From a virus: a DNA stretch of 64,000 nucleotides. The first letter of the stretch is position 1. Each line of letters opens with the position of its first letter. The notes beneath the pieces are model-generated. The model was not told the origin of the DNA. It did not search any database and saw nothing but the letters and a program-made list of their open reading frames with translations. Below, in pieces: positions 2,428-61,344 of the stretch. The DNA is taken from positions 1 to 64,000 of IMG/VR virus record IMGVR_UViG_3300028883_000004. One strand, given 5' to 3'. The translations under genes were made by a program, and so were the position numbers.

Positions 2428-3615
2428 ATGACCAACGAGGAAGTCATCCAGAAAGCGAAGATCACGGCGGACAATCTCGCCGCGGCCGGCAAGCTTTCCC
2501 CGAAGCAGGCCAATCGCTTCATCGATTACATTGTCGATTCCACCATCCTGGCGAAGAACGCGCGGGTGGCCAGGTTCCGTAACGAGGAACTGGAAATCAA
2601 CAAGATCGGCGTCGGCCGGCGCGTTGCCATGCCGAAGGCTTTGGCTACTGCACCGACGGCTCGTCGGACCATCACGACCGGCAAGCTTACCCTGAAACCC
2701 AAAGAGATCATCGTGCCCTTCGAGATCGGCGACAACTTCGTCGAGATCAATATCGAAGGCGACGACGTCGAAGATCACATCGTTCGCATGATGGCCGTTC
2801 AACTCGGAAACAATCTCGAAGAGCTTTACATCCTTGGCGACACCCTGGGTTACGCGGTGATCGAGAAAGACATTTACGAGGACGGCGACGCAGCGAAGTA
2901 CATCAAAGACGACTACCTGGCCCTTACCGACGGCTGGCTCAAACTGGCCCTGGGCTCCAACCTGTTCGATGCGGAAGGCGAGAACGTCTCCAGCGGTCTG
3001 TTCTCCAGGATGCTGATGAGCATGCCCGAGAAGTTCAAACGCAACAAGCGCAACCTCCGCTACTTCTGCTCCACCGAACACGAGCAGCTTTATCGTGAGA
3101 CCATGTCCACTCGCATCGGCGCCAGCGGTGAGAAGGCTCTGACGACCTTCTCCAATCTGACTCCCTTCGGCGTGGAGCTGGTTCCGGTTCCCCTGCTCCC
3201 GATGAATCCCATGTACGTTCAGCACGTCACCCTGACCGGGGAGGACGACATCAATCTGGCCTACGCGGACATCATCGATACCGTGGTCGCAGCCTCCGAC
3301 CTCGCCCAGACTCCTCAGGATGCTTACGTCGAAGACACCGACTACGAAGTGGATGAGGAAAACGGAACGATCGCCCGCATCGACGGCGGATCCATCGGAG
3401 ACGGCGTTACGGTGAAAGTAACCTACAAGACCCTCGGCAAAATGATCCTGACCACCTACGACAACTTCGTGGTCGGCATCGGCCGGGACATCCGCATCGA
3501 GAAGGATCGCGACATCTTCGCCGGCACCAATATGTACGCCATCACCTGCAAGGTCGATGTGCTCATCGAAGAGCCGGATGCTGCGGTTCTGGCACTCAAC
3601 GTCGGGAACGACTAA
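2428..3615 (+). CDS. major capsid protein (HK97-fold type)
   Basis: Strong SD (AAGGAGG) 8 nt upstream. The N-terminus (KLSPKQANRFIDYIVDSTILAKNARV...) and 395-aa size are typical of phage_capsid-family proteins. Position is after protease and scaffold. Confidence 0.75.
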   Translation: MTNEEVIQKAKITADNLAAAGKLSPKQANRFIDYIVDSTILAKNARVARFRNEELEINKIGVGRRVAMPKALATAPTARRTITTGKLTLKPKEIIVPFEIGDNFVEINIEGDDVEDHIVRMMAVQLGNNLEELYILGDTLGYAVIEKDIYEDGDAAKYIKDDYLALTDGWLKLALGSNLFDAEGENVSSGLFSRMLMSMPEKFKRNKRNLRYFCSTEHEQLYRETMSTRIGASGEKALTTFSNLTPFGVELVPVPLLPMNPMYVQHVTLTGEDDINLAYADIIDTVVAASDLAQTPQDAYVEDTDYEVDEENGTIARIDGGSIGDGVTVKVTYKTLGKMILTTYDNFVVGIGRDIRIEKDRDIFAGTNMYAITCKVDVLIEEPDAAVLALNVGND

Positions 3616-8141: not shown

Positions 8142-11111
8142 ATGCCGCAAAGACGATATGGACCCACTCAGGGAGCCGGAACGGCCATCATCGAGAGAGA
8201 GGGAGAGAAGGTCATTACTCCTGGTGCTCTCGGCGTTACGGTCTACACTGGCGTCCTGGAGAAGGGAAACGAGGGCGAGCTCATCTACTGCCCTGGGAAA
8301 CGAGACCTTGAGAAGAAAACAGGAGGGTACATCCCTGAGAGCTTCCTTCCCGACTGCGCCAGAGACATGCTGGATGCAGGAGAGGGAGCCGGCGAACTGT
8401 ATCTGATCAGGGTTCAGGACACAGAGCAGCGGAAGGGGTTCACCTTCCTGAAAAGCTCATTCGATCCGAACATGACTTCAGTCGAAGGTGTCGCTCAGGT
8501 GATGATGGACAGTGGAGGTATGTTCCCAAGCAAATCGACGATCGGAGAAATCGCCTATGTCGAAGCTGCAAATGCAGGAAAGTGGTCTGGGCGACGACTC
8601 ATCTTCGGATATTCGATCGACCCCGAAGAGGACAATGTCATTGATGGAAATCAGATCGACATCCTCGGTGGCAATATGGTTAACGGCATCGGTTTCGGAA
8701 ACGACGAACTGAAAGGGGCAACTCTCTACATCGAACCGGTGAAGGGAAAGTCTTACGAAGTCGTCTCGAACAACGGAAGCATCTGCACGCTCCCGATCGA
8801 TGTAAACCTTGAAGCTGACATCATTGCAGCCGGTGGCGTTCCGGAGTACAGGACAAAGCTCCAGGTTCTGGTCGTCCTCGATAACTCCAAAGCCGTTGGC
8901 ATTATGACAAAGACTGGAGCAATGGACGGATTCCACTGGGGAGCAGAAGTCTATTACAACGGAGGAAAGGTCAACGACTGGGCGAACCTGAACACAGACC
9001 TCGATGCAAAGTACGGTTACGTAAACCTGATCAACAACGACGGGAGCAATACCGACATCAAAGTCGAGAATCTGTGGAACGGATCCAAGACATCGCCGAA
9101 GGCCCTTCCCTCTATTCTCTCTGGTCGAGTTTTCGCTTCAGGGGAAATGATCGGAGCTGGCTCCAGTGTATTCATTCAGCTAAACGACATATTCATGAAA
9201 CATGACTTTAGTGATGACGACGCAAGCGATTCTTTTGAAGGAACCCCGATCGACCTTTGGGGACAGCATCCCGATGGTGATCCTTACAAGAATCAACCTG
9301 GACACTTCGAATTCATATGCTTCGAGAAGGAACCTGGAGACCTTCGCTGGAACGTCGTCTTTACTCCTGAGATGTACTACAGGGCGATGCAGAACAACAA
9401 AATCGGTGGCGACGATCCTCCGAATTTTTTCAGACCGTGGCAGTACCTCTGGGAAGCGGAAGCCAGGAGCGATGGAGATTCCGAGGAGATGGAAGATTGG
9501 AATGTCGACCCGCATCAGATCATACCGCCTTTCGTTATCGAACCTCCCGATGAAGGGACCTACACTGCAGGCGACACAATCGAACTTTTTATAGGTGGAC
9601 CGGCACCCGGTTCTCTTGCAGGATGGTTCCTGGTTCCGAATCCGCTTACCGCTCCCAACACAAAGGTTCGAATCGCCAATAACACCTTGGTTGCAATCGA
9701 GGTAAAATCGAGTGTCAATCTCAGTGAGTATTGGCCTGATATGAATCGTACGAATACATTCATGCAACCCGATCCAGACCTTGGTGGTCCGATGCCTTCT
9801 TATAACTGGAACAATTTTATGGAGACGAACTCTCTCGTTCCGAACCATGAGTTTCAGCAGGTATGGGGAAGGGTTGAGAGCGCCGGCGACAAAAACAACT
9901 TCCAGATGTCCTTCTACGACGATGCAGCCTACGGACCTGGGCAGCCTCCAGGAAATCGCCTCAACGTTTATACGGACCTCAAAGATTACTTTGAAGGAAA
10001 CCCACCCGCTGCTCAGCCGCTCAATCCGTTCTTAGGCGATGGTGAAATCTACATCGTTTTCGAAAACGGTGACATCATGTGCATCGAGTTCGACGCCGAC
10101 TACGTTCCTGCAGAACTTGCAAACTTCGCGGAGAACTGGGGATGGTGGTTCGAACTCGGAAACGGACCGTACTTCAAAGTCGAGGCTCCTCAGGAGATGT
10201 GCTATGCGAAAGACGGGCACACGAACCTGAATGACAACGACTACATTGAGGCGGCCTATGATGTCGACCTTACCCCACTCAAGAACCTTTTTGGAAAGAA
10301 GAAAGGACTTGTCAAACTGGCTACTCCTGGAGTAACTGCAACGGCAATTCAGAAAGCCGGCGTTGCTCTGGCGGATGCAATGAACTATCAATACCGCTAC
10401 GAGGTTCCCTCTAACATCGTAACCGAGGATGCGGCTGTCTCCTACATCGAAGACACGCTGGGTAAGAACGACTTCGCAGTCGTAGCTTTCCCCTCCTACG
10501 GGTACGTCAGCGATCCGGAGAAGGAAGGCCTCAAGCTCATCCCACTCACGGGAGCGATTCACGGGAGAGAGGCTGGAGTCGCCAGAGACTACAGCGGGTA
10601 TCATAAACCTGCGGCTGGCGTTTCGGTTACCCTTCCCAGGGTCCTCGCACTTCCGACCGGCGATCGAGTTCTCAACGAGGAGTTCCTCAACCCGAAGGGC
10701 GTCAACATCATCAAGAAGTACAGCGGGAACTTCATCATCTGGGGCAATCGTACACTGGCTCTTGATCCTACCTGGATGTGGAAACATCAGCGCGAGTTGA
10801 TGAGCCATTACGAGCACGACCTTCAGGAGTCCTTCGACTGGATCATCTTCATGCTGAACAACAAGGACACCTGGGCTCTCGCCAAGACGGCTCTCAAGTC
10901 GTACTTCCTTCCGGAGTACACAAAAGGAGCCCTCGATGGAGACTCCTTCGAGAAGGCGTGCAGCATCAAGATCGACAAAGACAACAACAGCAGGCTGGAA
11001 TCCGCTCTCGGAAACCTCAACGCCTCCATTACTCTGAGACTGGTCGACGCCGTGGAACGATTCGTCATCTCCATCGGCAAGGCTGGAATCTTCGAGGACA
11101 CCGCGTCCTAA
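8142..11111 (+). CDS. tail sheath protein (unusually long, 989 aa)
   Basis: SD GAAGGAGGA. The C-terminal region (KGVNIIKKYSGNFIIWGNRTLALDPTWMWKHQRELMSHYEHDLQESFDWIIFMLNNKDTWALAKTALKSYFLPEYTKGALDG) matches the conserved sheath C-terminal domain pattern (G.N.I..G...wGnRTL...). Confidence 0.85.
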   Translation: MPQRRYGPTQGAGTAIIEREGEKVITPGALGVTVYTGVLEKGNEGELIYCPGKRDLEKKTGGYIPESFLPDCARDMLDAGEGAGELYLIRVQDTEQRKGFTFLKSSFDPNMTSVEGVAQVMMDSGGMFPSKSTIGEIAYVEAANAGKWSGRRLIFGYSIDPEEDNVIDGNQIDILGGNMVNGIGFGNDELKGATLYIEPVKGKSYEVVSNNGSICTLPIDVNLEADIIAAGGVPEYRTKLQVLVVLDNSKAVGIMTKTGAMDGFHWGAEVYYNGGKVNDWANLNTDLDAKYGYVNLINNDGSNTDIKVENLWNGSKTSPKALPSILSGRVFASGEMIGAGSSVFIQLNDIFMKHDFSDDDASDSFEGTPIDLWGQHPDGDPYKNQPGHFEFICFEKEPGDLRWNVVFTPEMYYRAMQNNKIGGDDPPNFFRPWQYLWEAEARSDGDSEEMEDWNVDPHQIIPPFVIEPPDEGTYTAGDTIELFIGGPAPGSLAGWFLVPNPLTAPNTKVRIANNTLVAIEVKSSVNLSEYWPDMNRTNTFMQPDPDLGGPMPSYNWNNFMETNSLVPNHEFQQVWGRVESAGDKNNFQMSFYDDAAYGPGQPPGNRLNVYTDLKDYFEGNPPAAQPLNPFLGDGEIYIVFENGDIMCIEFDADYVPAELANFAENWGWWFELGNGPYFKVEAPQEMCYAKDGHTNLNDNDYIEAAYDVDLTPLKNLFGKKKGLVKLATPGVTATAIQKAGVALADAMNYQYRYEVPSNIVTEDAAVSYIEDTLGKNDFAVVAFPSYGYVSDPEKEGLKLIPLTGAIHGREAGVARDYSGYHKPAAGVSVTLPRVLALPTGDRVLNEEFLNPKGVNIIKKYSGNFIIWGNRTLALDPTWMWKHQRELMSHYEHDLQESFDWIIFMLNNKDTWALAKTALKSYFLPEYTKGALDGDSFEKACSIKIDKDNNSRLESALGNLNASITLRLVDAVERFVISIGKAGIFEDTAS

Positions 11112-11123
11112 GACAATCAATCC

Positions 11124-11153
11124 GACCTCCCCTCTGGAGATGGAGGGGAGGTC
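11124..11153 (+). terminator. GC-rich hairpin immediately after the sheath gene
   Basis: GACCTCCCCTC-tggagatg-GAGGGGAGGTC is a perfect 11-bp stem with an 8-nt loop. No T-tract. The 3' arm contains an SD-like GGAGG 6 nt before an in-frame ATG at 11160. Confidence 0.45.
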
Positions 11154-11189: not shown

Positions 11190-11510
11190 ATGGCAAAAGG
11201 TAACTTCTCAACATACCTGAAAGAGGGCGGCGGATCCGGCTTCTCGAAGGGTCATACGAAATTCGGGGATGGCAAAGCGGTTGTCGATACCCAGGGACAA
11301 ATCTGGATCAGCGACGTGCTTACGGGAACCGGTGCAGGCATGGAGATTCCGCACGACCTCAACGAAGAGCCCGACAATGTCCTGTTCTGCTCTCAGGGAA
11401 CGCAGGACTACGCCGGAGCCTTCACGATGGAAGGCGTCTCCAAGGACTCCGAGAAAGTCGTCGTGAATGTCACGGCCGGTCTCAAGTTCCAGTTGCTCCT
11501 CCAGCTGTAG
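11190..11510 (+). CDS. hypothetical protein (106 aa; alternative start 11160)
   Basis: ATG 11190 has a strong SD (GAAGGAGGA, 7-nt spacer). Gly-rich N-terminus (GGGSGFSKG). Function unknown. Confidence 0.5.
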   Translation: MAKGNFSTYLKEGGGSGFSKGHTKFGDGKAVVDTQGQIWISDVLTGTGAGMEIPHDLNEEPDNVLFCSQGTQDYAGAFTMEGVSKDSEKVVVNVTAGLKFQLLLQL

Positions 11511-11525: not shown

Positions 11526-12404
11526 ATGGATAAACGACCCCAGGCGGCTTTGGTGGTGGAGATGATAGACCCTCCGTGGGCCTTTTATCGTATCGCCACT
11601 CGGGTCAAAAGGAGGTTCGACGAACTCGGGATCGACAGTCGGATCGTTCTTCAGAAAGAACTGAGGAAGCGAGACAACTTCGACCTGATAGTTGTATTCT
11701 GGTGGGCTTCTGGTGTAAGCATACGAAGCCGCCTGGGGTCGCGACCTTTTGTTGCTACATGCTTCTACGATCACTTCAGCTGGAAGGGAGTGGAGAAAGC
11801 AAGACAGATTGTATCAGAATCAAATCTTATTTTAGCCTGCAATGAAAAACTTCAGGGCGAATTAAGAACTTCATTCGGATGCGAAAGTCATCTTGTAGAA
11901 GATGGAGTCGACACAAAGACTTTCTCGCCTTCTCCTCTCCCTTCCGACTTTTCAGTTGGATGGGTAGGGTCCACTCGATATAACGCCAGAGTAAAATGCC
12001 AATACAATGCAGTGAAAGCCTGCGATGAATTGGGGTTAGACCTCTACGTTGCAGACCCTACAAAGAATCCAATCATATTTGAGGACATGCCAGAGTTCTA
12101 CAAAGGCATTAGTGTTCTTCTAGTCACGAGCAAGGTGGAGGGAACTCCCAACCCTCTGCTGGAAGCGATGGCGTCTGGCCGTCCTGTTATATCCACTAGG
12201 GTTGGTCTTGCAGAGAAGGTCATTAGAAGCGGCGAGAACGGCGTCCTAGTGGACTTTGGAAAGCAACCCCTTGTGAGAGCCCTCCAAGCAATTCAATCGT
12301 CCGATCTAGCTGTAATGGGGAGACTTGCAGCAGATACCACAAAGTCATACGACTGGGAAGGTAAGATTCGGCAATGGGACTACGTCGCAAAAAGCGTTCT
12401 GTAA
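11526..12404 (+). CDS. glycosyltransferase, GT-B fold (GT1/GT4-like)
   Basis: Classic C-terminal GT-B motif: VTSKVEGTPNPLLEAMASGRPVISTRVGLAEKVIRSGENGVLVD. Confidence 0.8.
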   Translation: MDKRPQAALVVEMIDPPWAFYRIATRVKRRFDELGIDSRIVLQKELRKRDNFDLIVVFWWASGVSIRSRLGSRPFVATCFYDHFSWKGVEKARQIVSESNLILACNEKLQGELRTSFGCESHLVEDGVDTKTFSPSPLPSDFSVGWVGSTRYNARVKCQYNAVKACDELGLDLYVADPTKNPIIFEDMPEFYKGISVLLVTSKVEGTPNPLLEAMASGRPVISTRVGLAEKVIRSGENGVLVDFGKQPLVRALQAIQSSDLAVMGRLAADTTKSYDWEGKIRQWDYVAKSVL

Positions 12405-13447
12405 AAAGACAGATTGAACTTCATGCCATTAAGAATAGAGATGCCATCGCTGAGATGCAGAAGATAAAAGCTGTAGGTGGCTTTCAGTCCTTTATGCCTT
12501 ACGACTGTATCAACTGGAAGTGGGAGACGGACAAGCCTCACATTCTCTACGCAATAGACAGGTACGGCTGGGCGTTCTGGAATATAGCCAGAAACGTAAT
12601 GCCAAACCTTCAGAGATACGAAAATTACGAAGTCCCGTTCCTTTCTGTTGCAGAGGGAGGGGATTGCGACGTCGCTATCTGTTTTTGGTGGCAGTCGATC
12701 CTTCGACTAAAGGACAAAATCAAAGCAGGCAAGTGGCTGATGGGTCTCTACGATCACTTTACCTGGAAAGAGAACAATGCAACCTGGAAACCAGCAAACT
12801 CAACTTTCCTTGAGGCTCTAAAAGTATGTGATGGAATATTCGTCTCAAATGAGATGCTGATGAAAGAGGTCTCGGAGTTAACAGACAAACCAATCTATCT
12901 ATGCGAGGATGGAGTCGATACAAAGTTATTCACTGTTCAGGATCGAAACCCAGATCGAATCTTCAAGGTAGGATGGACAGGCAACTCCCTCTCTGGAAAC
13001 GGAGCGATCAAGGGTCTTGATGTTATAAAAGCTGCATGCAATAAAGTAACCAAAGCAAAGATTGCTACAATGTTCCTAGACAGGAAGGGATTTGACACAA
13101 AAGATTTTATCCCTCATGATGAAATGCCGAATGCATTTTACAAAGCAATCGACGCCTACCTTTGCGCATCTGTAGCAGAGGGAACTCCCAACCCATTGCT
13201 TGAGTCCCTCGCCTGTGGCGTTCCAGTCATTACGACCAGAGTTGGTCTCGTAGATAAGTTTGCAAGATGCCCAGGAGTAATTGTTGCAAAGAGAACTCCA
13301 GAGGCGTTTGCCAGGGCGATAGAACGAATGGCAAAACGAGACAGGGTCGAGATAGCAAAGGCCTGCAGGAAAGCTGTGGAGCCCTTCGACTGGAAAATCA
13401 AATCAGAGAACTTCGCCAGGATGATAGAAGATCAACTGGCAAGGTAG
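12374..13447 (+). CDS. glycosyltransferase, GT-B fold (paralogue of 11526-12404)
   Basis: ASVAEGTPNPLLESLACGVPVITTRVGLVDKF. Also shares LYDHFTWK...CEDGVDTKLF...VGWTGN with the upstream gene (FYDHFSWK...VEDGVDTKTF...VGWVGS). Confidence 0.8.
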   Translation: MGLRRKKRSVKRQIELHAIKNRDAIAEMQKIKAVGGFQSFMPYDCINWKWETDKPHILYAIDRYGWAFWNIARNVMPNLQRYENYEVPFLSVAEGGDCDVAICFWWQSILRLKDKIKAGKWLMGLYDHFTWKENNATWKPANSTFLEALKVCDGIFVSNEMLMKEVSELTDKPIYLCEDGVDTKLFTVQDRNPDRIFKVGWTGNSLSGNGAIKGLDVIKAACNKVTKAKIATMFLDRKGFDTKDFIPHDEMPNAFYKAIDAYLCASVAEGTPNPLLESLACGVPVITTRVGLVDKFARCPGVIVAKRTPEAFARAIERMAKRDRVEIAKACRKAVEPFDWKIKSENFARMIEDQLAR

Positions 13448-13461
13448 GAGGAAAGTGGAAA

Positions 13462-14415
13462 ATGGGAAAGACAAACCTTCGAGACAAGATCACGGTTTTC
13501 GTCATTAGCGTAGACGACGGTTCGGAGAGTTATCAGGATTGCATTGCTCATCTGAATAAGCAGGACTCAACCTTTGTTCTCAAGACGATTAAAAACGTCG
13601 TTCCGATGAATAAGGCCTTCCAGCAGATGCTCGACCTCTGCGAGACTCCTTACTTCATCCAAGTCGATCATGATATGAACCTGAACCACGATTCCGTGAG
13701 GAAACTTCTCGACCATCTTACAACGCTAAAGGAGAACACAGCAATCGCCGCCGTCCCTCTCCTTGACCATCATCTATGGCTTCCGATTATAGGTCTCAAA
13801 ATTTACAGGACCGATATCGTAAAGCAGTTTCCTTTCCACGGAAGTCAAGCTTGCGAGATGGATCAGGTGGAGCGACTAAAGGCTGCAGGTTACGAAGTCA
13901 ACATTCTCTGGAGAGGATTTGAAGGGAGCTTTCCATTTTGCTACGGCTCTCACGGAAAGAACTACACGAACCTGCTAGCCTTCGAGGCATATCGAAATCG
14001 GATTGTAAAAACGAGAAAGCACACATGGATAAACTGGGTTCGCGAATTGCCTGCTTTCTTTCTCAGAAGGTACAATGACGACAAGACGATTCCTGCTCAA
14101 AGAAGGGAGCACATAGGAGTCGAAAATGAACTTGACCTCTGGGCATTTCTTGGATGCATGGCAGGAGCCTTTGCGGACTTAACCAAAGAGGAGTCCGAGA
14201 AGGATTACAGGACCTACAGCAAGCTCGGTTTCGAGGCACTCCTTCCCTTGGTGGAAGGGAACTCGGATTTGATCAAAGGACTTCTCCCTGGAGACGAGGA
14301 AAGGGTCAGACAGACGGCGGCAGCCATCTGGACTTCCCTGAACTCCAATGACAGGGTTATAGACCCCGATGAGGTAGAAATCGGGGTCAGATTGACTATG
14401 AAGGGTACAATCTAG
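13462..14415 (+). CDS. glycosyltransferase, GT-A fold (GT2-like)
   Basis: ATG 13462 follows AGGAGGAAAG. The N-terminus (ITVFVISVDDGSESYQDCIAHLNKQD...YFIQVDHDMNL) has the GT2 layout with a DxD-type motif (DHD). The track ORF start at 13267 would overlap the previous gene. Confidence 0.65.
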   Translation: MGKTNLRDKITVFVISVDDGSESYQDCIAHLNKQDSTFVLKTIKNVVPMNKAFQQMLDLCETPYFIQVDHDMNLNHDSVRKLLDHLTTLKENTAIAAVPLLDHHLWLPIIGLKIYRTDIVKQFPFHGSQACEMDQVERLKAAGYEVNILWRGFEGSFPFCYGSHGKNYTNLLAFEAYRNRIVKTRKHTWINWVRELPAFFLRRYNDDKTIPAQRREHIGVENELDLWAFLGCMAGAFADLTKEESEKDYRTYSKLGFEALLPLVEGNSDLIKGLLPGDEERVRQTAAAIWTSLNSNDRVIDPDEVEIGVRLTMKGTI

Positions 14416-14448
14416 GAGAGAATCGCCCAGAATCCCGCTATTCAGCGG

Positions 14449-14470
14449 CATAGAGCGGCGATAGAGCGGC
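14449..14470 (+). promoter_or_regulatory. tandem CATAGAGCGGCGA / GATAGAGCGGC motif in an intergenic region
   Basis: Two overlapping direct copies. The 13-mer recurs in inverted orientation at 61303-61315, in another intergenic region. Confidence 0.25.
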
Positions 14471-14542
14471 TTTCTAGGGCAGAGTAGGGGAAAGAGACCC
14501 CGGAACCATACAAACCGCTTAGAACGGCGGAGAGGAGGTCAA

Positions 14543-15661
14543 ATGAGACCAACTGGAAAGATCGAGGAAGTCAAAGGACCTCTCCTGCTGATCGGGGACG
14601 AGGACCCCTGGAGTAGGAAGGTGAGGAAGGAACTCGCAGACGACCCGCTCGGAAGGACGGCTGTGCAACTCGTAAAGGACCCGGACATGCCGGCTCCTGA
14701 GACCGAATTCTGGGAATGGGCTCACAAGGAATACGCCGACCTCGAAATGATCGCAGGGCGGTGGCCGAAGAACAAATGGATCCAAGACAGGATTGATTCT
14801 CTTCGTCCGATCGTCAAGAGCATCATGGAGAACGGATACCAGAAACATTATCATCCGAATTATGAAGTCTGGGAACACGACGACGGGACTCTGTACCCGG
14901 TGGGACCGATCACCATCTGGATAGGACCTCATGGCAACTTCCTTCTGGAGAAGGTTGACGGCTTCCGTCGGATGTGTGTATTGGTTGCTCTTGGTCTCCC
15001 TATCGTTGCAATGGTTGCCGGGCGCGACCAGAGATGGGAGAAACTCAGAGCAGACCTTCGTCTGGATAGACAGGGTCGTAAATATCTGTACTCGTACATC
15101 GCTCATCCGGACTTCGCCGATTGGGAGGTCGCCTATGCTGACACAGAGAAGTACGACTGCATCGTCGACGAGATCGCGAAGGTCGGTCCAGGTTCCCTTC
15201 TGGATGTAGGGACCCACTTCGGATACATGCCTTTCAGACTGGCTGAAGCAGGTCTGTTGAAGGGAGAGGTCCTCGCGGTTGAGAACTACGGCATCTGGGC
15301 GGCGGTAGCCGATTCGGTTCTGATGCAGTATGGATACAATGCAACGCTCTCTGACATCTACCCCACCATGCTTCGAGTGGAAGGGCAAAAATTCAATAAC
15401 GGAGTGATGCTGGCTATCGTCTATCATCTCCTTCGAGTGAAGGGAGATAAACTCGCGAAGGAAATCATTCAGCGAGTTGGAGCTGCATGCGATCGAATCT
15501 TCTTCGACGACTTCGTTGCAGGACGAGAGAACGTCGGCAGTTCACGGATCAGAAACATCGTGAAGGTTCTCCCGAAGTGGGCAGGTCATGGGAAGGCCAG
15601 AAGGATAGGGACTGACAACTTCGCAAATAGAGGCATCTGGGTCTGCGAAAAAAAGGACTAG
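14543..15661 (+). CDS. ParB/Srx-like domain fused to a class I SAM-dependent methyltransferase
   Basis: The central segment (IWIGPHGNFLLEKVDGFRRMCVLVALGLPIVAMV) resembles the ParB-like DGxHR core. Downstream, SLLDVGTHFGYMPFRLAEAG...VLAVEN is SAM-binding motif I plus the acidic post-I residue. Confidence 0.6.
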   Translation: MRPTGKIEEVKGPLLLIGDEDPWSRKVRKELADDPLGRTAVQLVKDPDMPAPETEFWEWAHKEYADLEMIAGRWPKNKWIQDRIDSLRPIVKSIMENGYQKHYHPNYEVWEHDDGTLYPVGPITIWIGPHGNFLLEKVDGFRRMCVLVALGLPIVAMVAGRDQRWEKLRADLRLDRQGRKYLYSYIAHPDFADWEVAYADTEKYDCIVDEIAKVGPGSLLDVGTHFGYMPFRLAEAGLLKGEVLAVENYGIWAAVADSVLMQYGYNATLSDIYPTMLRVEGQKFNNGVMLAIVYHLLRVKGDKLAKEIIQRVGAACDRIFFDDFVAGRENVGSSRIRNIVKVLPKWAGHGKARRIGTDNFANRGIWVCEKKD

Positions 15662-15832
15662 ACAGGTGCAGAGTGCAATCTGTAGTTTCGGAATAGTCAT
15701 GGCGAATGGAGCTTTCCCAAACCTTATCGCCCAAGAAGCGAAGGGATGGTCGAAGCGATCCTTTAGACACCTCGCCTTTTTAGTATCCGACCACAAGGGA
15801 AAGAAAGTTCAAACCGTAAAGGAGTTCTGAAG

Positions 15833-16273
15833 ATGAAACGCGGAGAGATCGAAAAGGATCAAGTGAACCTTAACAAGTTCACCCTGTTCGTCATCGGACT
15901 TCCGCCCATCAAGTTTACGGAGACCGGAGAACTGGAGCAGGAAATCAAAAAGATGGTCCTGCCCGACGGAACGGCCCGCTCGACGGGGATCACCGACCCC
16001 TTCGACTTCCCGGCAAGCATGATGATGCACCACGTTATCGAGCTCGCCGCGATGGAACTCTGGTGGGTGGAATGTCAGGACCCGGTTATGCCGACGGCCT
16101 ACAAGCCGGGGACGATGATTTACAAGTCGGCTTCGGAGGCCCTTCAGTTGACCCTCGTCCTGGAGAGTCTGTTCTTGACGAAACGGAAGTATCCGGGCGG
16201 CGACACCCGGAGCGAAGAAGCAGGCAAGGTCGAGTGGACCTTCTCCTGCGATAACATGCTCCCTCCGGTGTAA
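15833..16273 (+). CDS. putative tail tube protein
   Basis: SD AAGGAG 8 nt upstream. 146 aa and beta-rich. Ending (KVEWTFSCDNMLPPV) is typical of tube-family proteins. Lies directly upstream of the chaperone and tape measure genes. Confidence 0.45.
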   Translation: MKRGEIEKDQVNLNKFTLFVIGLPPIKFTETGELEQEIKKMVLPDGTARSTGITDPFDFPASMMMHHVIELAAMELWWVECQDPVMPTAYKPGTMIYKSASEALQLTLVLESLFLTKRKYPGGDTRSEEAGKVEWTFSCDNMLPPV

Positions 16274-16336: not shown

Positions 16337-17356
16337 ATGTCAGATCGTAAACGGAAAACAGCGAGTAAGGCCGATCCTGGAAAGGACCTCGATCGTAGGA
16401 AAGAGAAACCTGCAGATGAGGAAGTTCCAGAAGCGGTTATCGGGAACACGGATGCCTACGAGGAGAAGAAAGTCAGACTGCTTCCCTGGGCGGTTATCCC
16501 TCACGTCATTGAGGCGAGTAAAGAGCGCCCGAAGGTTGAAACGGTTCTCTTACGAGACCTCGGGCCGAACCTCCCGATGGGAGTCCCCGATGCAGCCGGA
16601 AATCTCGTCAAACCATTCTCCATGAGATCATGGAAGATGCCTCAGGAAAAGAAGGTGGCAAAGATCAAACGAAAGAACCCGATGATGGGAGACTTCGTTC
16701 CGCTCCTTCTCTCTGTTTTCCTTGAGAACGTGGGAGGTCGTAAGCTCCCCGGATCCAATGATGAGCCTACAGACCCTCAGCGAATCCTTACCCTCCATCA
16801 GATGGCGATGCAAGATGTTCTTTACATGTATGTCTATCTTCGCTTTCAGGAGGTTGGTGAGATTCTGCCAATGGGTATCCAGTGTCCGAGTTGCAGATAC
16901 ATGCATCAGCGGTATCCAGCAGACCTCGGAACTCTGGAGGTTGTCGTCTATCCGGAGGGAACGAACGTATCACAGCTCGTAGGCTCCTACGCAATGCAGT
17001 CGCCTTTCAAGATCGGCGAGACCAACGTCGAGAATCTTCTGTACATTCCTACTCCGTGGAGCATGATGACGGAGGTTCCGGAGGACGAGGAGGAAAACGA
17101 GGCGGCCTTCAAGGAGCGGATCATTCAGACCTCTGTTCGTAGGGTTGCTGAGATGGAAGCTCCGATGTTCGTTCTGAATGAATCTCATATGGAGCACTTC
17201 GGAAAGAAGGACATCGAGGGACTTTCCGCGGACGTCATCATCGCAAACGGTGGGCTCGATATGATGCTGGAAGGGAAGTGCGAAAAATGCAAAGCACAGT
17301 TCTACCAGCTCATTAACTGGACGTACACAAATTTTTTCTCAACCTCTTCCAGGTAA
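16337..17356 (+). CDS. putative tail assembly chaperone (zero-frame product, 339 aa)
   Basis: Position immediately upstream of the tape measure gene. Carries a slippery heptamer near its 3' end. Contains CPSC...CEKC (possible Zn ribbon). Unusually long for this role. Confidence 0.45.
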   Translation: MSDRKRKTASKADPGKDLDRRKEKPADEEVPEAVIGNTDAYEEKKVRLLPWAVIPHVIEASKERPKVETVLLRDLGPNLPMGVPDAAGNLVKPFSMRSWKMPQEKKVAKIKRKNPMMGDFVPLLLSVFLENVGGRKLPGSNDEPTDPQRILTLHQMAMQDVLYMYVYLRFQEVGEILPMGIQCPSCRYMHQRYPADLGTLEVVVYPEGTNVSQLVGSYAMQSPFKIGETNVENLLYIPTPWSMMTEVPEDEEENEAAFKERIIQTSVRRVAEMEAPMFVLNESHMEHFGKKDIEGLSADVIIANGGLDMMLEGKCEKCKAQFYQLINWTYTNFFSTSSR

Positions 17357-17561: not shown

Positions 17562-20018
17562 ATGTCTAACAGGAACGTCGGCCTTGGCGCCTATCTAAAA
17601 TTCAGTAGCGGAAAAGCCGTCTCGGAAATGGGGCGAGTCAACCGCGCCCTGAAAGGTATGATGGCTGGAGTCTCCAGAGTCTCCTCTGGTGTCTCCAAGA
17701 TGTCGGCCGGCTTCAATAAACTCGCAATGGCTGGAACCGGGGTCGCGGTGGCCCTTGGTTTTGGTGTAAGGTCTGCAGTTAAGTTTGAGCAAGGGATGAG
17801 CGGTGTAAATGCCGTTCTGATGAAAAGCTCTGCAGAGACAGCTGCCCTTCGTACCGAGGCGTTGAGGTTAGGATCAACTACAACCTTCACTGCCACCGAA
17901 GCATCTAATGCAATGGAGAACTTAGCCAGAGCAGGCTTCAGTCAAAATGAGATTATCTCAGCGACTGGAGCTGTTCTGAATGCAGCTGCCGCTGATGCAA
18001 TGGGACTTGCAGAGGCTGCCGACATTGTGGCTAACGTTACCAGGGCAATGGGACTGGAAGCGAAGGATGCTTCGAGAGTCGCTGACGTCTTGGCTCTAAC
18101 GTCTGCGAAGACAAATACAAACATCACAATGTTAGGAGAGGGGTTCAAGTACGCGGCGACTCAGTCGAAGAACTTGGGCATCCCGCTGGAGGAGACTTCT
18201 GCCGTCCTGGGCTTGATGGCAAATGCAGGTCTCAAGGGAAGTATGGGAGGCACGAGCTTTACCAACATGCTGGTAAAGATGACAAAGCCTACCGCTACTG
18301 CGAAAAGGATGATGAGTGAACTCGGAGCCGAATTCGTAGTTGCCACGGACAAGTTCGGAAAGAAACGAGTCGACCTTATAGACACGGTGCATAGTATCGC
18401 GGCAGGATTCAAGGACATAAAGGACCCTGTGAAGAAAGCCGCAATGGTTACAGAGATATTCGGACTTCGTGGACAGAAGGCAGTTGGCTCCTTCCTTGGT
18501 CAACTCGAAAAGAATCCCAGAGTGCTTTCTGACCTTTATGCAAAACTCGAAGATGCTAACGGCGCCGCAGCAAAGATGGCCGAAATTAGACTTGATAATG
18601 TAGCAGGGCAAATGACCCTTCTGAAAAGCGCAGTAGAAGGCCTCACGATCAACTTCTTTTCCATGTTTAACTCTCAGGCAAAGGGAGGTCTAAAGTCTCT
18701 CGCTAAAGGGATTGGAAACATCTCAGTTGCACTTCAGTATCTTACGACCGATCCAAAACAGATTGGTGAGAAGTTCCAAAAGATGTACGATGAATTACCT
18801 CAGGGTGCAAAGGATACGGCAGCCGCTCTACAGTCTGCAGCGATCACTATTAGAAACGCATGGACATGGGTTGGGAACAACGTAATTAAACCTGCAAAGG
18901 AATGGTTCAACTCACTTACACCAGAGGCGAAGAAAACTCTCGTCACAGTTACACTAGGAGCAACGGCGCTTGTAGGAGTTATGGGCCCACTCTCTCTGGC
19001 AATAGCCACGGTTGGTTTCATAGCTTCCGGCGTTGCTTCCGTAGTCGCGGGAGCCTTCTCAGTAATGGCAGGAGCAATCTGGCCAGTTACTCTTGTAGTA
19101 GGAGCCCTCGCGGCAGCTTATTTCGCTTTGAGGAGAGACGGGGAGACTCCGTTGCAATTCATGGCGAGAGCATGGACAAATCTAAAGACGGCCGTAATGG
19201 ATTTCGCTCAGGGGTTCAAGAGTACATTCATGCCAATGTGGGAACCGCTGAAGGAGCTTTACGCCTCAGCGATTAAACCAATCTGGGACTCTCTGAAGGG
19301 AATGTTCGCAGACATCTTCGGAGGCGGGAATACAACGGCAGCTTCCTTCAAGCAAATAGGAGCGGTCGTTGGAACGGTGTTCGGATTCATAGCTACCGTA
19401 GTCGGAACGGTCATGCAGGTCGTAGGAGTCTACATCTCCAATGTGATTGACGGTTACATTAGACCAATGATTAGGGCCGTTCAAAACATAGCAGGTGGCT
19501 TTATCGACCTTGTTACTGGAGCGACCTCAATGAAGTCCGCTCTGGCTAGAATCTTTGGAGGTGTAGCAGACATCATCATCCTTCCTTTCAAGTATTCCAT
19601 CTCGAAGGTCCTTGCAATCATCGAGGGACTAGGGAAGGCCGTCGGCTTGAAGATGGAAGGAGTTGCAAAGGCAAGGAAGGTTGTAAACGACTTCTCAATT
19701 GCAGGCCTTCTCACTGGTGGGAAATCGGAGGGAGCAAAACCGACTGTAGCTCCACCGGTAAAGAATCCGATTGTTGCAGCTGGCCCGACTGCTCCTGTAG
19801 CTTCACCTGTAGCAATGAATACGGCTGCAGCAGCTCCGAAGGTAGATGTAAATGTAGAGGCTCCACCACCTCCGAATGTAAACCAGACAACAGTGGTGAA
19901 GCTCGACGGAAAAGAGATAGCAGCAAAGGTCGTAAAGAATCAGATCGATTACGACCAGAGAGCAGGGAACAAGTCTGGTTCAAGGGAGGCGGCAAAGAAC
20001 TATGGGGCAGGAGGTTAA
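17562..20018 (+). CDS. tail tape measure protein
   Basis: The core (MGLEAKDASRVADVLALTSAKTNTNITMLGEGFKYAATQSKNLGIPLEETSAVLGLMANAGLKGSMGGTSFTNMLVKM) matches the TP901-type tape measure core. Central hydrophobic segments. 818 aa. Confidence 0.85.
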   Translation: MSNRNVGLGAYLKFSSGKAVSEMGRVNRALKGMMAGVSRVSSGVSKMSAGFNKLAMAGTGVAVALGFGVRSAVKFEQGMSGVNAVLMKSSAETAALRTEALRLGSTTTFTATEASNAMENLARAGFSQNEIISATGAVLNAAAADAMGLAEAADIVANVTRAMGLEAKDASRVADVLALTSAKTNTNITMLGEGFKYAATQSKNLGIPLEETSAVLGLMANAGLKGSMGGTSFTNMLVKMTKPTATAKRMMSELGAEFVVATDKFGKKRVDLIDTVHSIAAGFKDIKDPVKKAAMVTEIFGLRGQKAVGSFLGQLEKNPRVLSDLYAKLEDANGAAAKMAEIRLDNVAGQMTLLKSAVEGLTINFFSMFNSQAKGGLKSLAKGIGNISVALQYLTTDPKQIGEKFQKMYDELPQGAKDTAAALQSAAITIRNAWTWVGNNVIKPAKEWFNSLTPEAKKTLVTVTLGATALVGVMGPLSLAIATVGFIASGVASVVAGAFSVMAGAIWPVTLVVGALAAAYFALRRDGETPLQFMARAWTNLKTAVMDFAQGFKSTFMPMWEPLKELYASAIKPIWDSLKGMFADIFGGGNTTAASFKQIGAVVGTVFGFIATVVGTVMQVVGVYISNVIDGYIRPMIRAVQNIAGGFIDLVTGATSMKSALARIFGGVADIIILPFKYSISKVLAIIEGLGKAVGLKMEGVAKARKVVNDFSIAGLLTGGKSEGAKPTVAPPVKNPIVAAGPTAPVASPVAMNTAAAAPKVDVNVEAPPPPNVNQTTVVKLDGKEIAAKVVKNQIDYDQRAGNKSGSREAAKNYGAGG

Positions 20019-25758: not shown

Positions 25759-27282
25759 ATGGCGAGCTTTTCACAAATAGTACCAAGCGAGGTAACGGAA
25801 CTCACTCCAACGTGGGTAAAGGTATACGGAAACGACCTTCCGGCTACAGGGTCTTGGATCATAGGCGAAGATCGTTACCCAATGCAAGTTATTGTAGAAG
25901 GCGATGACCGCGTCTCCCTTCTCATTCCTCCACTCCCGTTTGGTGAGTACACTCTTTCTGTAGAGGCTTCTGGCGAATCGTTCTCCCTGGCAGACGCCTT
26001 CAGAGTGGTTACAAATACCAACACTGAACTCTATGACTACATCATCGATGCTGTAAGAGAGGATGACAGAATCGATGGAGACTCCTTCCTGCAAAGATAC
26101 CTAAGAGGTGCACAATCTCTAGTTGATGTTATGAAGGAGAAAATAGACGAACTTCCATTTTCCATTGGTCCAGGGACAGTATCTGAAAGAGAGGCCAAAA
26201 AGATACTCCCTCAAATCGGAAAGCTCGTAGCGTTAGGGACTCCAGACCTTGCTCCTGTAATGGAGGCATTGGATATTCCGCGAATGAGGAAGTTAGTTGC
26301 AGCGGCCTCGACGATTTGGTCTCAGATGCTTACAGAGGTAGGATACAAAAACGCCTGCAGGATAATCACCGGAGACGAAGTCGTCATCTACAACTGGTTT
26401 CTCAATAGAGTCGTTCTAGGAGAGACCCCGATCAGTTTTAATCATGGACATGCAGGTGGAGAGTTCAAACTTCATCCTGGTTTATATGATACGGGAGAGG
26501 GAGACGAAGCAAACGGTCCGTATCAGAGCGACCTTTACATGTGGACTCCTGAAATCGAAGATGCAGATGTGGAGATTCTACGGCTCATCCTAAGATTGAT
26601 GAGACCTATGAGCGAGAGGCTCAATCTGTACTTCTGTGAAGTCTTTGATGAGTTCCTTCTTGGGCAACGACAATGGCTTGAGATAGGTGGAGACCTCGTG
26701 GAGTTTTATCCAGGCGAAGGTATGGTTCAAATCGGTGGATCGCTTCTACAAGCTGGTGGAATTGCAGTTGGTGGTTATGACTACCTCAAGCGGATGTTCG
26801 AAAGCAACTTTTATTTTCATTCCGATATTCTGATTCCGAAGTCTACATCGACTGCAATAGCTTTCGGAACCGGCGATGGAACGATAACGCATACTTACCA
26901 GTTGAGAGTAGGGTTTGACCTTGGAAGCAGAACTGGGAAAAGAAGGATCGATTTGATGAGGCACTATAATGAGGAAGGCGGTCCATCTTCGACTACCTTC
27001 CTGGAACATGTCGATGTTCCTGTTTCTGAAGAGTGCACGAATAACTTAGCCATCGAACAAAGGATAGTTGCTACAGGTGGTGGTTACAATAGAGAGTTGC
27101 GATGCTTTCTAAATGGGGAGCATCTTATGACGGGAGTAGAAAGCGCATCGCAGTTAGACTTCGACGCTGCTCCCTCGATAATAGTTCCTTGTGTAACGAC
27201 AGGATTTGAACAGGTTGAACTCTACAGGACAGAGGCGCATTACGTACCACGCCGTAAGGCCCTGGTAGACATAAACGAATAG
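25759..27282 (+). CDS. putative baseplate/tail protein (gpI position) with N-terminal Ig-like (IPT/TIG-like) domain
   Basis: Synteny after J. The N-terminal ~85 aa (VTELTPTWVKVYGNDLPATG...GEYTLSVEASGESFSLADAFRVV) look like an IPT/TIG beta-sandwich. Confidence 0.45.
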   Translation: MASFSQIVPSEVTELTPTWVKVYGNDLPATGSWIIGEDRYPMQVIVEGDDRVSLLIPPLPFGEYTLSVEASGESFSLADAFRVVTNTNTELYDYIIDAVREDDRIDGDSFLQRYLRGAQSLVDVMKEKIDELPFSIGPGTVSEREAKKILPQIGKLVALGTPDLAPVMEALDIPRMRKLVAAASTIWSQMLTEVGYKNACRIITGDEVVIYNWFLNRVVLGETPISFNHGHAGGEFKLHPGLYDTGEGDEANGPYQSDLYMWTPEIEDADVEILRLILRLMRPMSERLNLYFCEVFDEFLLGQRQWLEIGGDLVEFYPGEGMVQIGGSLLQAGGIAVGGYDYLKRMFESNFYFHSDILIPKSTSTAIAFGTGDGTITHTYQLRVGFDLGSRTGKRRIDLMRHYNEEGGPSSTTFLEHVDVPVSEECTNNLAIEQRIVATGGGYNRELRCFLNGEHLMTGVESASQLDFDAAPSIIVPCVTTGFEQVELYRTEAHYVPRRKALVDINE

Positions 27283-27292
27283 GAGAACTGGA

Positions 27293-30200: not shown

Positions 30201-30670
30201 TTACATCATGCATTGCAGAGAATAACGGCAGCGGTGGATTCTATCTAAATGGTTATATGACGACAACATCAGCTTGCCTCGCTAGAGGTAACGATGGAAA
30301 CGGCTTTGCAAACTACGGAGGCGGTAGTCATAGTTATGTAGGATGCATTGCAATCGGAAACGATGCAGATGGATTCCACCTTGTAGAGAAATCGGCATGC
30401 TCAAATTGCCTCGCCCAATCGAACGGTGAAGAGGGATTCTTTATTGACGGTCAATACAGTAAAATCACCGACTGTGAAGCATGGTACAACGACGATGTAG
30501 GATTTGGAGTCCACGTTGGCGATGTAGCATTATACGATAACATCGGATGGGCAAATTCAAACTACGACTTCAAACTCAACGGTTACGTTGGAATTGGATT
30601 CAAGAAGTTTGGAGACATCAACACAAACGTTACAGACAACAACGAATTTCAAACCTTCACTGGATCATAA
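27293..30670 (+). CDS. tail fibre/tailspike with right-handed parallel beta-helix (putative glycan depolymerase)
   Basis: 1125 aa. The C-terminal ~500 aa carry many ~22-aa repeats with N..G.GF (NDGAGFSW, NVGRGFQD, NNGSGGFYL, GNDGNGFAN, GNDADGFHL, SNGEEGFFI, YNDDVGFGV), typical of PbH1 repeats. Confidence 0.7.
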   Translation: MLLRKKINAYTKKVLGKGDLKDRFLDYLADVVYSFTSRFYQGQGIRDGAIVGDTSQSDAFGFLDSTGPDTPGEINGVDGNGKEMELTDGDHSLDAFGSWKVPFANANGIWYWVGLKANEMPYYDPPVDPGALQPLETNPVTGQPAYTSLIDITGEVGHPDDVEWDSGTGQLILEVTDLTEAGESHAMRQAIVYLDSPVSTNHAIAFKEVLVDWNADGDNKNKVRFVGDLGQQAAGLSVSTDPDDYWVVIPGPTCRRNTDLSLDGDYCILGKVEGGGAGNPPSSYDLSAQRRLDLSFGDNAANIETLGKDIYKDPVSMLDGDGLMNFNQPIEYWWEQEHRQDGYGTPGERYTHSDITPDSVKAKQKAGWSKIIARATSSGDAVLGKIGVHDYSTNAWIGGIHGDGKFITPNEGQFGAGVFPGSSLKAHLIEEAGASSKQVMAFKDENITTAVRLSHAGKLTNFSEMPEEGIVPAIAWNYRRRKVITVGNGSTNFGDYNGASEIKTAIESQKGNEQPVSIYIKAGSYTINNGPIVIPSNVMIYGDGIGTKLLNGSASEYIFDIPQVTTGADGQCYVGDQYTFQSSGSTFQTDGVEAGDYLVPMGIDIFGTPYVNTDCMDPYRIGEVLSETQLKVQGRTFGGSHTDVYFAILKHGVEIHNLQTYAATGKHGHIRANVVGGKFTNLFMRRNGSAYGLYLVGGIDCTIENIHGEQVDHLVSLGSNSQNCVVNNVVGLDCNQVVVVSGGTEFFGGGHSVSNVSGQRCENIIYGTGSGFTVNNISSRWGRDDAVYLHSAAGFSVSGVASYYDYGSAVHVDSCYACTLSNITSYYNRSGAGLNISAGDNGISVSNVVINQSVGQGVNISSLTSTNGKPASFSNVIVYNAGNGAGSYSGFYLTQIDNVSFDGCGAFGCTNQGWNINLSDKVKFANCFGFKNDGAGFSWDEGSMSFSNCEASENVGRGFQDTGTSSDCTFTSCIAENNGSGGFYLNGYMTTTSACLARGNDGNGFANYGGGSHSYVGCIAIGNDADGFHLVEKSACSNCLAQSNGEEGFFIDGQYSKITDCEAWYNDDVGFGVHVGDVALYDNIGWANSNYDFKLNGYVGIGFKKFGDINTNVTDNNEFQTFTGS

Positions 30671-61302: not shown

Positions 61303-61344
61303 TCGCCGCTCTATGGGCGATATAGGAGCCCAGAACGGGCGATA
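61303..61344 (+). promoter_or_regulatory. intergenic motif cluster: inverted copy of the 14449 motif plus two GGGCGATA direct repeats
   Basis: TCGCCGCTCTATG at 61303-61315 is the reverse complement of CATAGAGCGGCGA. GGGCGATA occurs at 61315-61322 and 61337-61344, 22 bp apart. Confidence 0.25.

Follow-up and report, generated by a model that had tools for sequence, protein, structure and literature searches.

Organisation of the sheath–tube region

We analysed 64,000 nucleotides (nt) of viral DNA, positions 1–64,000 of the IMG/VR record IMGVR_UViG_3300028883_000004 (hereafter the window), and within it an island of predicted glycosyltransferase (GT) and methyltransferase genes that separates the tail sheath gene from the tail tube gene of an uncultivated phage. 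The phage has a contractile tail and a genome of about 96 kb (matching metagenome contigs, 95.8–95.9 kb), of which about 84 kb were annotated in the window and on the matching contigs. The genes are arranged in the order terminase, portal, prohead protease, major capsid protein (2428–3615), connectors, sheath, island region, tape measure, baseplate, fibres, endolysin and replication module, those upstream of position 509 having been read on a matching contig; all genes of the region lie on the + strand. The island consists of a 106-amino-acid (aa) glycine-rich open reading frame (ORF), orf106 (11190–11510), two GTs of the GT-B fold, GT4a (11526–12404) and GT4b (12374–13447), a GT of the GT-A fold (13462–14415), and a fusion of a ParB-like domain to an S-adenosylmethionine (SAM) methyltransferase (14543–15661), all of them present on the + strand where the initial annotation, made by a model from the letters alone, had placed them.

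The upstream boundary of the island is the sheath gene (8142–11111, + strand, 989 aa), which matches phrog_23 'tail sheath' (E 1.5e-18) and PF17482 at 26.3 bits (E 7.9e-6), slightly below the cutoff of 26.9 bits, and whose C-terminal third is 55–58% identical to the sheaths of the related phages L001–L003 and L008. The downstream boundary is the gene for a 146-aa protein (15833–16273, + strand), which had been put forward as the putative tube. Taken by itself, the sequence evidence for this assignment is marginal: a 42-sequence profile of the family found a 163-aa 'Tail tube protein' as its top match in the PDB (9ev2, E 0.043), its alignment with T4 gp19 by hhalign was colinear over 100 columns with an E-value of 0.0014 and a probability of just 18%, PF06841 matched three of four tube orthologues weakly (best E 0.084), and a PHROGs search with the orthologues returned nothing. 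In the IMG/VR relatives L001–L003, however, a 145–150-aa homologue (31–38% identity) lies 3′ of the sheath, either directly or with a small unrelated ORF in between; next come, in this order, a homologue of a 339-aa protein and the tape measure. Since the family directly follows the sheath in related loci, it is the sheath's invariant partner, and the combination of profiles and synteny makes the assignment as tail tube sound. It is also the best conserved protein of the block, with 74% identity to its L008 counterpart compared to 55% for the sheath.

A scan of metagenomes with the tube profile yielded 80 further relatives, many of them on contigs of 92–117 kb, and the sheath–tube spacing was measured at the 68 loci where the sheath C-terminus and the tube are both visible. 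The tube homologue starts 18–1063 nt past the sheath in 67 of these (at most 130 nt in 30 loci, 131–1063 nt in 37) and 5.2 kb past it in L008 alone, compared to 4.7 kb in the window. No homologue of any island gene was found within about 9 kb in the 80 metagenome relatives. As the window phage and L008/L009 alone among the relatives carry it, the island of about 4.7–5.2 kb is an insertion specific to this lineage, in a slot whose content varies, which bears out the original proposal that a normally adjacent, or nearly adjacent, sheath–tube pair is interrupted here. No direct or inverted repeats flanking the island were found, and it was rejected as a bounded mobile element on that ground. In the 37 loci with intermediate spacing the slot holds one small accessory ORF, often of a family that we call ORF-A (about 146 aa, motif TTGTA.STTVQV), which fills it in L001 (12332–12778), L002 (12367–12807) and some 20 of the metagenome relatives (L101, L112 and L132, among others); the slot is a hotspot for small proteins, possibly ones that decorate the tail.

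The contigs L008/L009 represent a diverged relative that was found through its 43%-identical methyltransferase. Here the sheath is followed by a 100-aa ORF (51% identity to orf106), a GT4 protein (32%), a 653-aa fusion of GT4b (44%) with the GT-A enzyme (42%), then the methyltransferase (42%), one additional gene for 280 aa, the tube and a 311-aa protein. Because order and content of the island are kept in L008 at 32–51% protein identity, next to structural genes at 55–74%, the comparison indicates that the island is old and has been maintained in this sub-lineage under long-term purifying selection. This bears on the possibility that the island makes a free, lipid-linked or metabolite-linked glycoconjugate that has nothing to do with either the virion or the host envelope, or that it is a decaying passenger insertion. 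Such an origin would fit the atypical codon bias of the GT genes and a slot that tolerates unrelated accessory ORFs, but all four ORFs for the enzymes are intact, they are conserved in L008 as described, and a trio of them is conserved across distant phage lineages (see below), so that we regard it as improbable.

The small elements around these genes gave a mixed picture. Just 3′ of the sheath stop codon lies a strong stem-loop (11124–11153, + strand) with a 13-bp stem and a folding energy of -25.5 kcal/mol (z -4.4), matched by none of 200 shuffled sequences. It is not followed by a T-tract on the + strand and is for that reason probably an mRNA-stabilising or attenuating element rather than a full terminator. 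The two non-coding gaps that had been taken, together with this hairpin, to delimit the island also exist (14416–14542, 127 nt; 15662–15832, 171 nt), but neither is conserved in L008. The first gap contains, read directly from the sequence, two tandem copies of ATAGAGCGGC at 14450–14470 and the ribosome-binding site of the methyltransferase gene. Allowing up to one mismatch, this 10-mer occurs nine times in the window against 2.9 expected, a count reached in none of 100 shuffles, a copy on the - strand lying at 61305–61314, and it is possibly a regulatory motif. The second gap precedes the tube gene, where L008 has its extra gene; no remnant of that gene was found in the comparison, and the gap was rejected as its relic. 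The 280-aa product in question (L008 6010–6852) has no Pfam match, and its N-terminus resembles, by eye, a P-loop or sulfotransferase-like motif; in L004 and L181 the cassette is found together with sulfotransferase genes. Neither gap matched Rfam, scans of the island and the window for Rfam families and tRNAs returned nothing, and promoter-like and terminator-like sites in the region were as frequent as in shuffled controls.

The product of orf106 has no family match and no homologue in our searches beyond the ORF at the equivalent position in L008; none was found in the 80 island-less relatives. It was possible that orf106 was the tube and the 146-aa protein unrelated. This fails, as orf106 is confined to the two island carriers, co-occurring strictly with the island, while the 146-aa family follows the sheath universally. 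A relationship to ORF-A of L001 and L002 was rejected or at best left unresolved (BLAST E 11, hhalign E 0.11), the two having in common only a glycine-rich N-terminal motif (G-x-G-x-G ... H-G). The G+C content at third codon positions (GC3) of orf106 is 0.72, the third highest of 52 genes in the window behind the capsid gene (0.79) and the tube gene (0.78), and we consider its product a candidate for an abundant virion protein and a good candidate for a glycan acceptor or partner. The remaining genes have a median of about 0.55, and values are low for GT4a and GT4b (both 0.49) and for a fibre-like gene (25759–30670, 0.45). GC3 separates the presumably highest-expressed genes of this genome from the rest and is useful as a proxy of expression or foreignness.

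Past the tube, a gene for a 339-aa conserved protein with two CxxC pairs (16337–17356, + strand) precedes the gene for an 818-aa tape measure protein (17562–20018, + strand; PF10145, E 1e-45; phrog_1533, E 1e-78). The 339-aa protein matches no family; it is 31% identical to a 268-aa protein of L001 (13285–14091; E 4e-38) and 40% identical to the 311-aa protein of L008 (7365–8300). A zinc-ribbon-like CxxC protein of 270–340 aa is always found between tube and tape measure, the usual site of frameshifted chaperones in myoviruses, and is likely to be a tail assembly factor.

At the DNA level, a megablast of 8–20 kb against GenBank phages gave no match, and a tblastn search of 50,697 GenBank phage records with the tube, GT-A and methyltransferase proteins, the two GT4 proteins not being part of that search, found nothing. 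A word-indexed homologue search with the tube and the methyltransferase retrieved the queries and L008, and nothing more, and single-sequence PDB searches with these two, the GT-A protein and orf106 gave nothing meaningful. No description of the same cassette was found in the literature searched.

Predicted enzymes of the island

GT4a (+ strand, 292 aa) matches PF13692 (57 bits) and PF00534 (51 bits), and GT4b (+ strand, 357 aa, alternative start at 12455) matches PF13692 at 52 bits and has a second match from this pair of GT4 domains at 44 bits, all above the curated cutoffs; the best NCBIfam matches of both are GT4 families. They are paralogues (31% identity, E 3e-31) with the common motif EGTPNPLLE(A/S) in the E-x7-E region. 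GT4a is 32% identical to a 298-aa protein of L008, and GT4b aligns from residue 37 with the N-terminal half of the L008 fusion. By their C-terminal nucleotide-sugar-binding Rossmann domains, both are members of the GT4 (Glycos_transf_1) family, and a transferase function is predicted for them.

The third transferase (13462–14415, + strand, 317 aa) is divergent and carries a C-terminal helical domain. It matches PF00535 below threshold (19.5 bits, cutoff 23.3), as does the L008 fusion, to whose C-terminal half it corresponds (13.7 bits), and a precomputed match to this family was present in one of 15 homologues. An AlphaFold model built with these 15 homologues had a mean predicted local distance difference test score (pLDDT) of 79.9, mostly above 85 in the first 200 residues, and Foldseek placed GT2-type GT-A enzymes exclusively at the top: 6p61 (a Leptospira GT), RmlT, TarS, TarP, PcManGT and SpsA, with E-values from 2e-6 to 4e-5. 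Essentially all of the top 50 matches were GT2/GT-A enzymes. The DxD motif is present, D69 and D71 being invariant in 'VQVD(E/H)DM'. On the strength of this model, the protein is predicted to be a GT2-like glycosyltransferase of the GT-A fold. In bacteria, GT4 domains are the fusion partners of its homologues, and in phages radical SAM domains. Since L008 and many bacteria encode GT4b and the GT-A enzyme as a single polypeptide, the two are expected to act as a unit. The four island enzymes contain no 19-residue window of transmembrane-type hydrophobicity; a single value of 1.91 falls in the core of the modelled ParB-like domain.

The methyltransferase gene (14543–15661, + strand) encodes 372 aa, with a putative N-terminal ParB/Srx-fold domain (residues ~100–175, motif DGFRR) and, according to a family profile, an AlphaFold (AF2) model and Foldseek, a C-terminal WbdD-like class I SAM methyltransferase domain (~180–330). 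There is no direct Pfam match. An exhaustive HMMER scan collected 169 homologues, mostly of about 350 aa, and among the best 50 of these, Methyltransf_25 was found in 39, Methyltransf_23 in 34 and ParB_N in two (E 7e-5), while three were fused to a GT1 domain. A profile of the 13 closest members matched WbdD in the PDB with an E-value of 1.1e-11, all other methyltransferases being at 9e-4 or worse, and matched the ParB-fold kinase SbnI over residues 109–149 (E 0.03). With the model of the island enzyme (pLDDT 92.5, predicted template modelling score 0.86), the five best matches of a Foldseek search of the PDB were the five WbdD entries (E 5e-11 to 1.4e-8). A fold search of BFVD returned generic methyltransferase domains and no two-domain match, and a scan of the genome collection with the profile, whose pattern was too narrow, yielded no confirmed relative.

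We then compared individual residues. Motif I (LDxGxxxG) is present, with D221, G223 and G227 conserved. When the profile is aligned with WbdD, Y183 and H295, both invariant in the family, correspond to Y16 and H133, and Y294 (His in four family members) to H132. No counterpart of WbdD R203, which lies beyond the aligned region, could be placed; R363 of the island enzyme is family-invariant. In WbdD, mutation of Y16, H132, H133 or R203 abolishes the phosphate-methyltransferase activity (PMC3482155). In the N-terminal half, the putative ParB/Srx-fold part, D139, G140 and R143 are invariant and form the D-G-x-(H/R)-R motif of that fold. The sequence contains no eukaryotic-type kinase domain and no coiled coil. 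As these two parts of WbdD are missing and the extra domain is N-terminal and ParB-like, sequence and model support describing the enzyme as having a WbdD-like methyltransferase domain, and not as a WbdD orthologue.

According to a 2025 survey, phages are enriched in fusions of a ParB fold with Methyltransf_23, for which a role as DNA methylases was presumed (PMC12704722). In line with this, the island could serve DNA hypermodification, the transferases glycosylating a modified base of the phage as a defence against restriction and the ParB-fold domain bringing the methyltransferase to DNA. Phage transferases that glycosylate DNA are well known, and the nucleotide-metabolism genes of this phage form an unusual set, with two ThyX homologues, a dUTPase_2-like protein, a dCMP deaminase and two uracil-DNA glycosylase (UDG)-family proteins. 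However, the methyltransferase contains neither a DPPY-type nor a PCQ motif, i.e., the catalytic motifs of DNA methylases are absent from its sequence, and its relatives are methyltransferases of glycans or small molecules. In addition, neither a ThyA-type hydroxymethylase nor a base kinase could be detected, about 20 kb separate the replication genes from the island, which is part of the virion module, the partners of the cassette in other phages (a sulfotransferase, a rhamnosyl-O-methyltransferase-like enzyme and radical SAM proteins) are glycan-tailoring enzymes, and a glycan on DNA built by three transferases would be unusual. Hence, a role in DNA modification seems very improbable, and the earlier idea that the island makes a methylated oligosaccharide is strengthened by the resemblance to a glycan-capping enzyme. 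As to the pyrimidine genes themselves, the first ThyX (PF02511) homologue is unusually long (343 aa; 44475–45506) and lies in the replication module beside a dUTPase_2-like protein of 432 aa and a UDG-family protein; a 238-aa copy is found about 7 kb past the window (17576–18292 of the matching contig L017). Together with the second UDG-family protein (324 aa) and the dCMP deaminase, they hint at a non-standard pyrimidine metabolism or base modification.

The ParB/Srx domain may have a role of its own. By analogy with the ParB-fold enzymes SerK, SbnI and Srx, which phosphorylate their substrates, it might be an ATP-dependent kinase acting on the terminal sugar, the WbdD-like domain then methylating the phosphate, so that the domain would be a non-homologous replacement of the WbdD kinase and, together with the GT4/GT-A pair, would define a widespread, undescribed virion-glycan cassette of phages. 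ParB-fold/SAM-methyltransferase fusions have been reported to bind ATP (PMC12704722). We hold this proposal to be rather unlikely; if it were true, many of the phage fusions annotated as ParB-methyltransferases would be glycan enzymes and not DNA methylases.

The cassette in other phages and its possible target

In the window lineage, the cassette lies immediately 3′ of the sheath gene and orf106. We found the trio of a GT4, the GT-A enzyme and the ParB-fold methyltransferase directly 3′ of the major capsid gene on five further contigs (L005, L006, L011, L179 and L182), which belong to two further lineages with different capsid families. In L011 and L179, the capsid gene is followed by a GT4-GT4 fusion, the GT-A enzyme fused to a radical SAM domain, and the ParB-fold methyltransferase plus a second methyltransferase, whose order differs between the two. 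In L182, the capsid is followed by GT4-GT4, GT-A/radical SAM, a 298-aa unknown protein, an O-methyltransferase, the ParB-fold methyltransferase, a 207-aa unknown protein and a Methyltransf_23 methyltransferase. On L005 and L006, the series portal ... major head protein leads into the methyltransferase and multidomain proteins that contain GT-A, accompanied by additional genes for GT2, GT4 and methyltransferases. A 388-kb jumbo phage (L004) carries GT4, GT-A/radical SAM, a sulfotransferase, the ParB-fold methyltransferase and a CmcI-like methyltransferase. The phage cassettes are often enlarged, by radical SAM, sulfotransferase and O-methyltransferase genes, and the cassette recurs beside the genes for the most abundant surface proteins of the virion. 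This distribution suggests that it is modular and mobile between structural-gene slots.

Taken together, these observations are consistent with an island that forms a cytoplasmic cassette building a short, capped glycan on virion proteins, a reading to which we give about an even chance. The island genes would be transcribed with the structural genes, and one transferase, using a nucleotide sugar of the host (or one epimerised by the phage), would place the first sugar on Ser or Thr of an abundant, surface-exposed virion protein. Candidate acceptors are the outer domains of the sheath, the orf106 product (co-inherited, with a capsid-like codon bias) and the capsid. The other two transferases would extend the glycan, GT4b and the GT-A enzyme as a unit, and the methyltransferase would cap the non-reducing end with an O-methyl or methyl-phosphate group and fix its length; a coupling to GT domains is seen in the three methyltransferase homologues that are fused to GT1. 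The resulting coat might change properties of the virion surface, such as how stable and sticky it is and how hosts or predators recognise it. Neither a flippase nor an exporter was found in the annotated regions of the genome. About 5 kb past position 64000, a gene encodes an NAD-dependent nucleotide-sugar epimerase/dehydratase (L017 14945–15931; matches to RmlD_sub_bind, Epimerase and GDP_Man_Dehyd), which could supply a special sugar donor to the island transferases.

The GT-A family ('TVFV..., VQVD(E/H)DM') also occurs in Planctomycetota, Acidobacteriota, Gemmatimonadota, Nitrospirota, Chloroflexota and Binatia, where it is often fused to or preceded by a GT4, the phage members being often fused to a radical SAM/SPASM-like domain. 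GT4 and GT-A are fused or adjacent in about 38 of 80 loci from bacterial metagenome-assembled genomes (L019–L098), and at two annotated Pirellula/Planctomycetota loci, the pair lies among genes for an ATP-binding cassette (ABC) exporter, GT2, GT4 and a nucleotidyltransferase, i.e., in a surface-polysaccharide locus. This setting is what would be expected if the island remodelled host surface glycans as a moron or auxiliary function, with its enzymes acting at the inner membrane face on lipid-linked O-antigen, capsule or extracellular polysaccharide, adding side sugars or capping the chain prematurely. The host exporter would then deliver the product, and receptor availability would change (e.g., so that superinfection is excluded or fewer progeny are trapped on debris). 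Peripheral GT4 enzymes work without transmembrane segments, in PHROGs the GT family that comes nearest is classed as 'moron, auxiliary metabolic gene', and WbdD, which among solved structures is closest to the methyltransferase, ends the chain of a lipid-linked O-antigen. However, no flippase, exporter, polymerase, ligase or Gtr-type membrane protein was seen in the island or in the annotated 84 kb, nor an integrase or repressor in the annotated regions, and the position and strand of the island imply late expression, too late to remodel a cell near lysis. The ParB-fold methyltransferase was found in none of the 80 bacterial loci carrying the GT pair and in every phage cassette, and the cassette lies repeatedly directly 3′ of capsid genes in other phages. 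In view of this, remodelling of the host surface is, in our estimation, unlikely, though the foremost of the alternatives.

Several of these observations weigh against glycosylation of virion proteins, together with others. The bacterial homologues in exporter-linked polysaccharide loci imply that the ancestral acceptors of the GT pair were lipid-linked glycans, not proteins, and WbdD likewise acts on a lipid-linked substrate. Sites just 3′ of highly expressed structural genes are classic moron sites, so that adjacency may reflect tolerance and not function. In the same way, the sheath–tube slot attracts accessory ORFs in general (37 of the 68 relatives have one there), which makes position alone weak evidence. 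The GC3 of the GT genes is low relative to that of the structural genes, and the sheath, tube, capsid and orf106 proteins showed neither a tail rich in Ser/Thr nor any other evident acceptor motif. The long sheath is not specific to the island either, since the sheaths of the relatives range from 647 to 1047 aa and those of island-less relatives reach 1047 aa; on this ground, its singling out in the initial annotation as an island-linked substrate was rejected. Finally, the phage is known from metagenome contigs alone. Of the earlier suggestion that virion proteins are the likely target, the circumstantial side has thus gained, through the cassettes 3′ of capsid genes in two lineages, the soluble proteins and the lack of an exporter, while the target itself is still a matter of inference.

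The sheath family differs along its length: the middle (about residues 319–676) is hypervariable in length, and the N- and C-terminal thirds are conserved, a pattern consistent with swappable, surface-exposed decoration domains.

If glycosylation of the virion by this cassette is confirmed, glycosylation of phage particles would perhaps be broader than assumed, extending to environmental myoviruses and other lineages with a different, modular and mobile enzyme set, and would offer a route to virion stability, adsorption, immune or grazer recognition and glyco-engineering. The cassette also provides a testable glycan-capping function for the phage-enriched ParB-fold/methyltransferase fusion, hitherto assumed to act on DNA. 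Moreover, it is a natural fusion case (separate genes here, fused elsewhere) that ties GT4 to an unannotated GT-A family of polysaccharide loci in Planctomycetota, Acidobacteriota and Nitrospirota.

Comparison with known systems

The chlorella virus PBCV-1 encodes A064R, a multidomain protein with two rhamnosyltransferase domains and a methyltransferase domain. Like the reading proposed for the island, it involves a virus-encoded, cytoplasmic and host-independent capsid glycan, the terminal sugar of which is methylated by a transferase-linked virus enzyme. PBCV-1 is, however, a giant virus of eukaryotes with atypical N-linked glycans; its self-glycosylation has been noted (PMC5852040). The Gtr-type systems (GtrA/GtrB/GtrC) resemble the island in being phage sugar transferases able to change host surface glycans. 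They differ in that they are membrane proteins of temperate phages encoded near the attachment site, whereas the island proteins have no membrane segments and are encoded in a tail module. Neither the GtrA flippase nor GtrB nor a serotype-specific GtrC was found in the annotated genome regions.

With regard to the enzymes, the polymannose O-antigen of E. coli O9a/O8 is made by the GT4 mannosyltransferases WbdA-C and the chain terminator WbdD (PMC3482155). The likeness lies in the GT4 transferases and the WbdD-like methyltransferase, with Y183 and H295 aligned to catalytically required WbdD residues and a putative nucleotide-binding domain in the same polypeptide, which suggests capping or length-setting. 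In contrast, the island is without the eukaryotic-type kinase, the coiled-coil ruler, the membrane anchor and the Wzm/Wzt exporter, its extra domain is N-terminal and of the ParB/Srx fold, and its acceptor is probably not undecaprenyl-linked. The phage fusions of the ParB-CTPase fold with Methyltransf_23 are of the same domain architecture class and are reported as enriched in phages (PMC12704722), but DNA-methyltransferase roles are presumed for them, whereas the fusion described here lies in glycosyltransferase cassettes and has a WbdD-like domain.

The closest parallel in terms of biology is the glycosylation of mycobacteriophage virions. To our knowledge, virion glycosylation by phage-encoded enzymes has been demonstrated essentially only in some mycobacteriophages, where it alters the recognition of the virion by antibodies. 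Two reports that cite Freeman et al. (2023) describe it for Cluster F (Che8) and Cluster O, whose Corndog-type phages have three tandem glycosyltransferase genes beside an O-methyltransferase gene (PMC11600133, PMC12619734). As in these phages, where the glycans are found on the high-copy capsid and tail tube proteins, soluble phage transferases and a methyltransferase are encoded inside the virion structural block. Those phages are siphoviruses of Actinobacteria, whereas the island, a putative glycosylation system, belongs to a ~96-kb myovirus. Its tube, GT-A enzyme and methyltransferase show no similarity to GenBank phages, its methyltransferase is a ParB-fold fusion of the WbdD type, and its location between sheath and tube is different. 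Because no relatives of the GT-A enzyme or the methyltransferase could be detected among sequenced phages, the island is best described as an analogue of the mycobacteriophage system and not as a member of it. In summary, phage enzymes that glycosylate virions are already known, and what appears to be new here is the enzyme set, the virion module in which it is found, the phage lineages and an apparently modular cassette.

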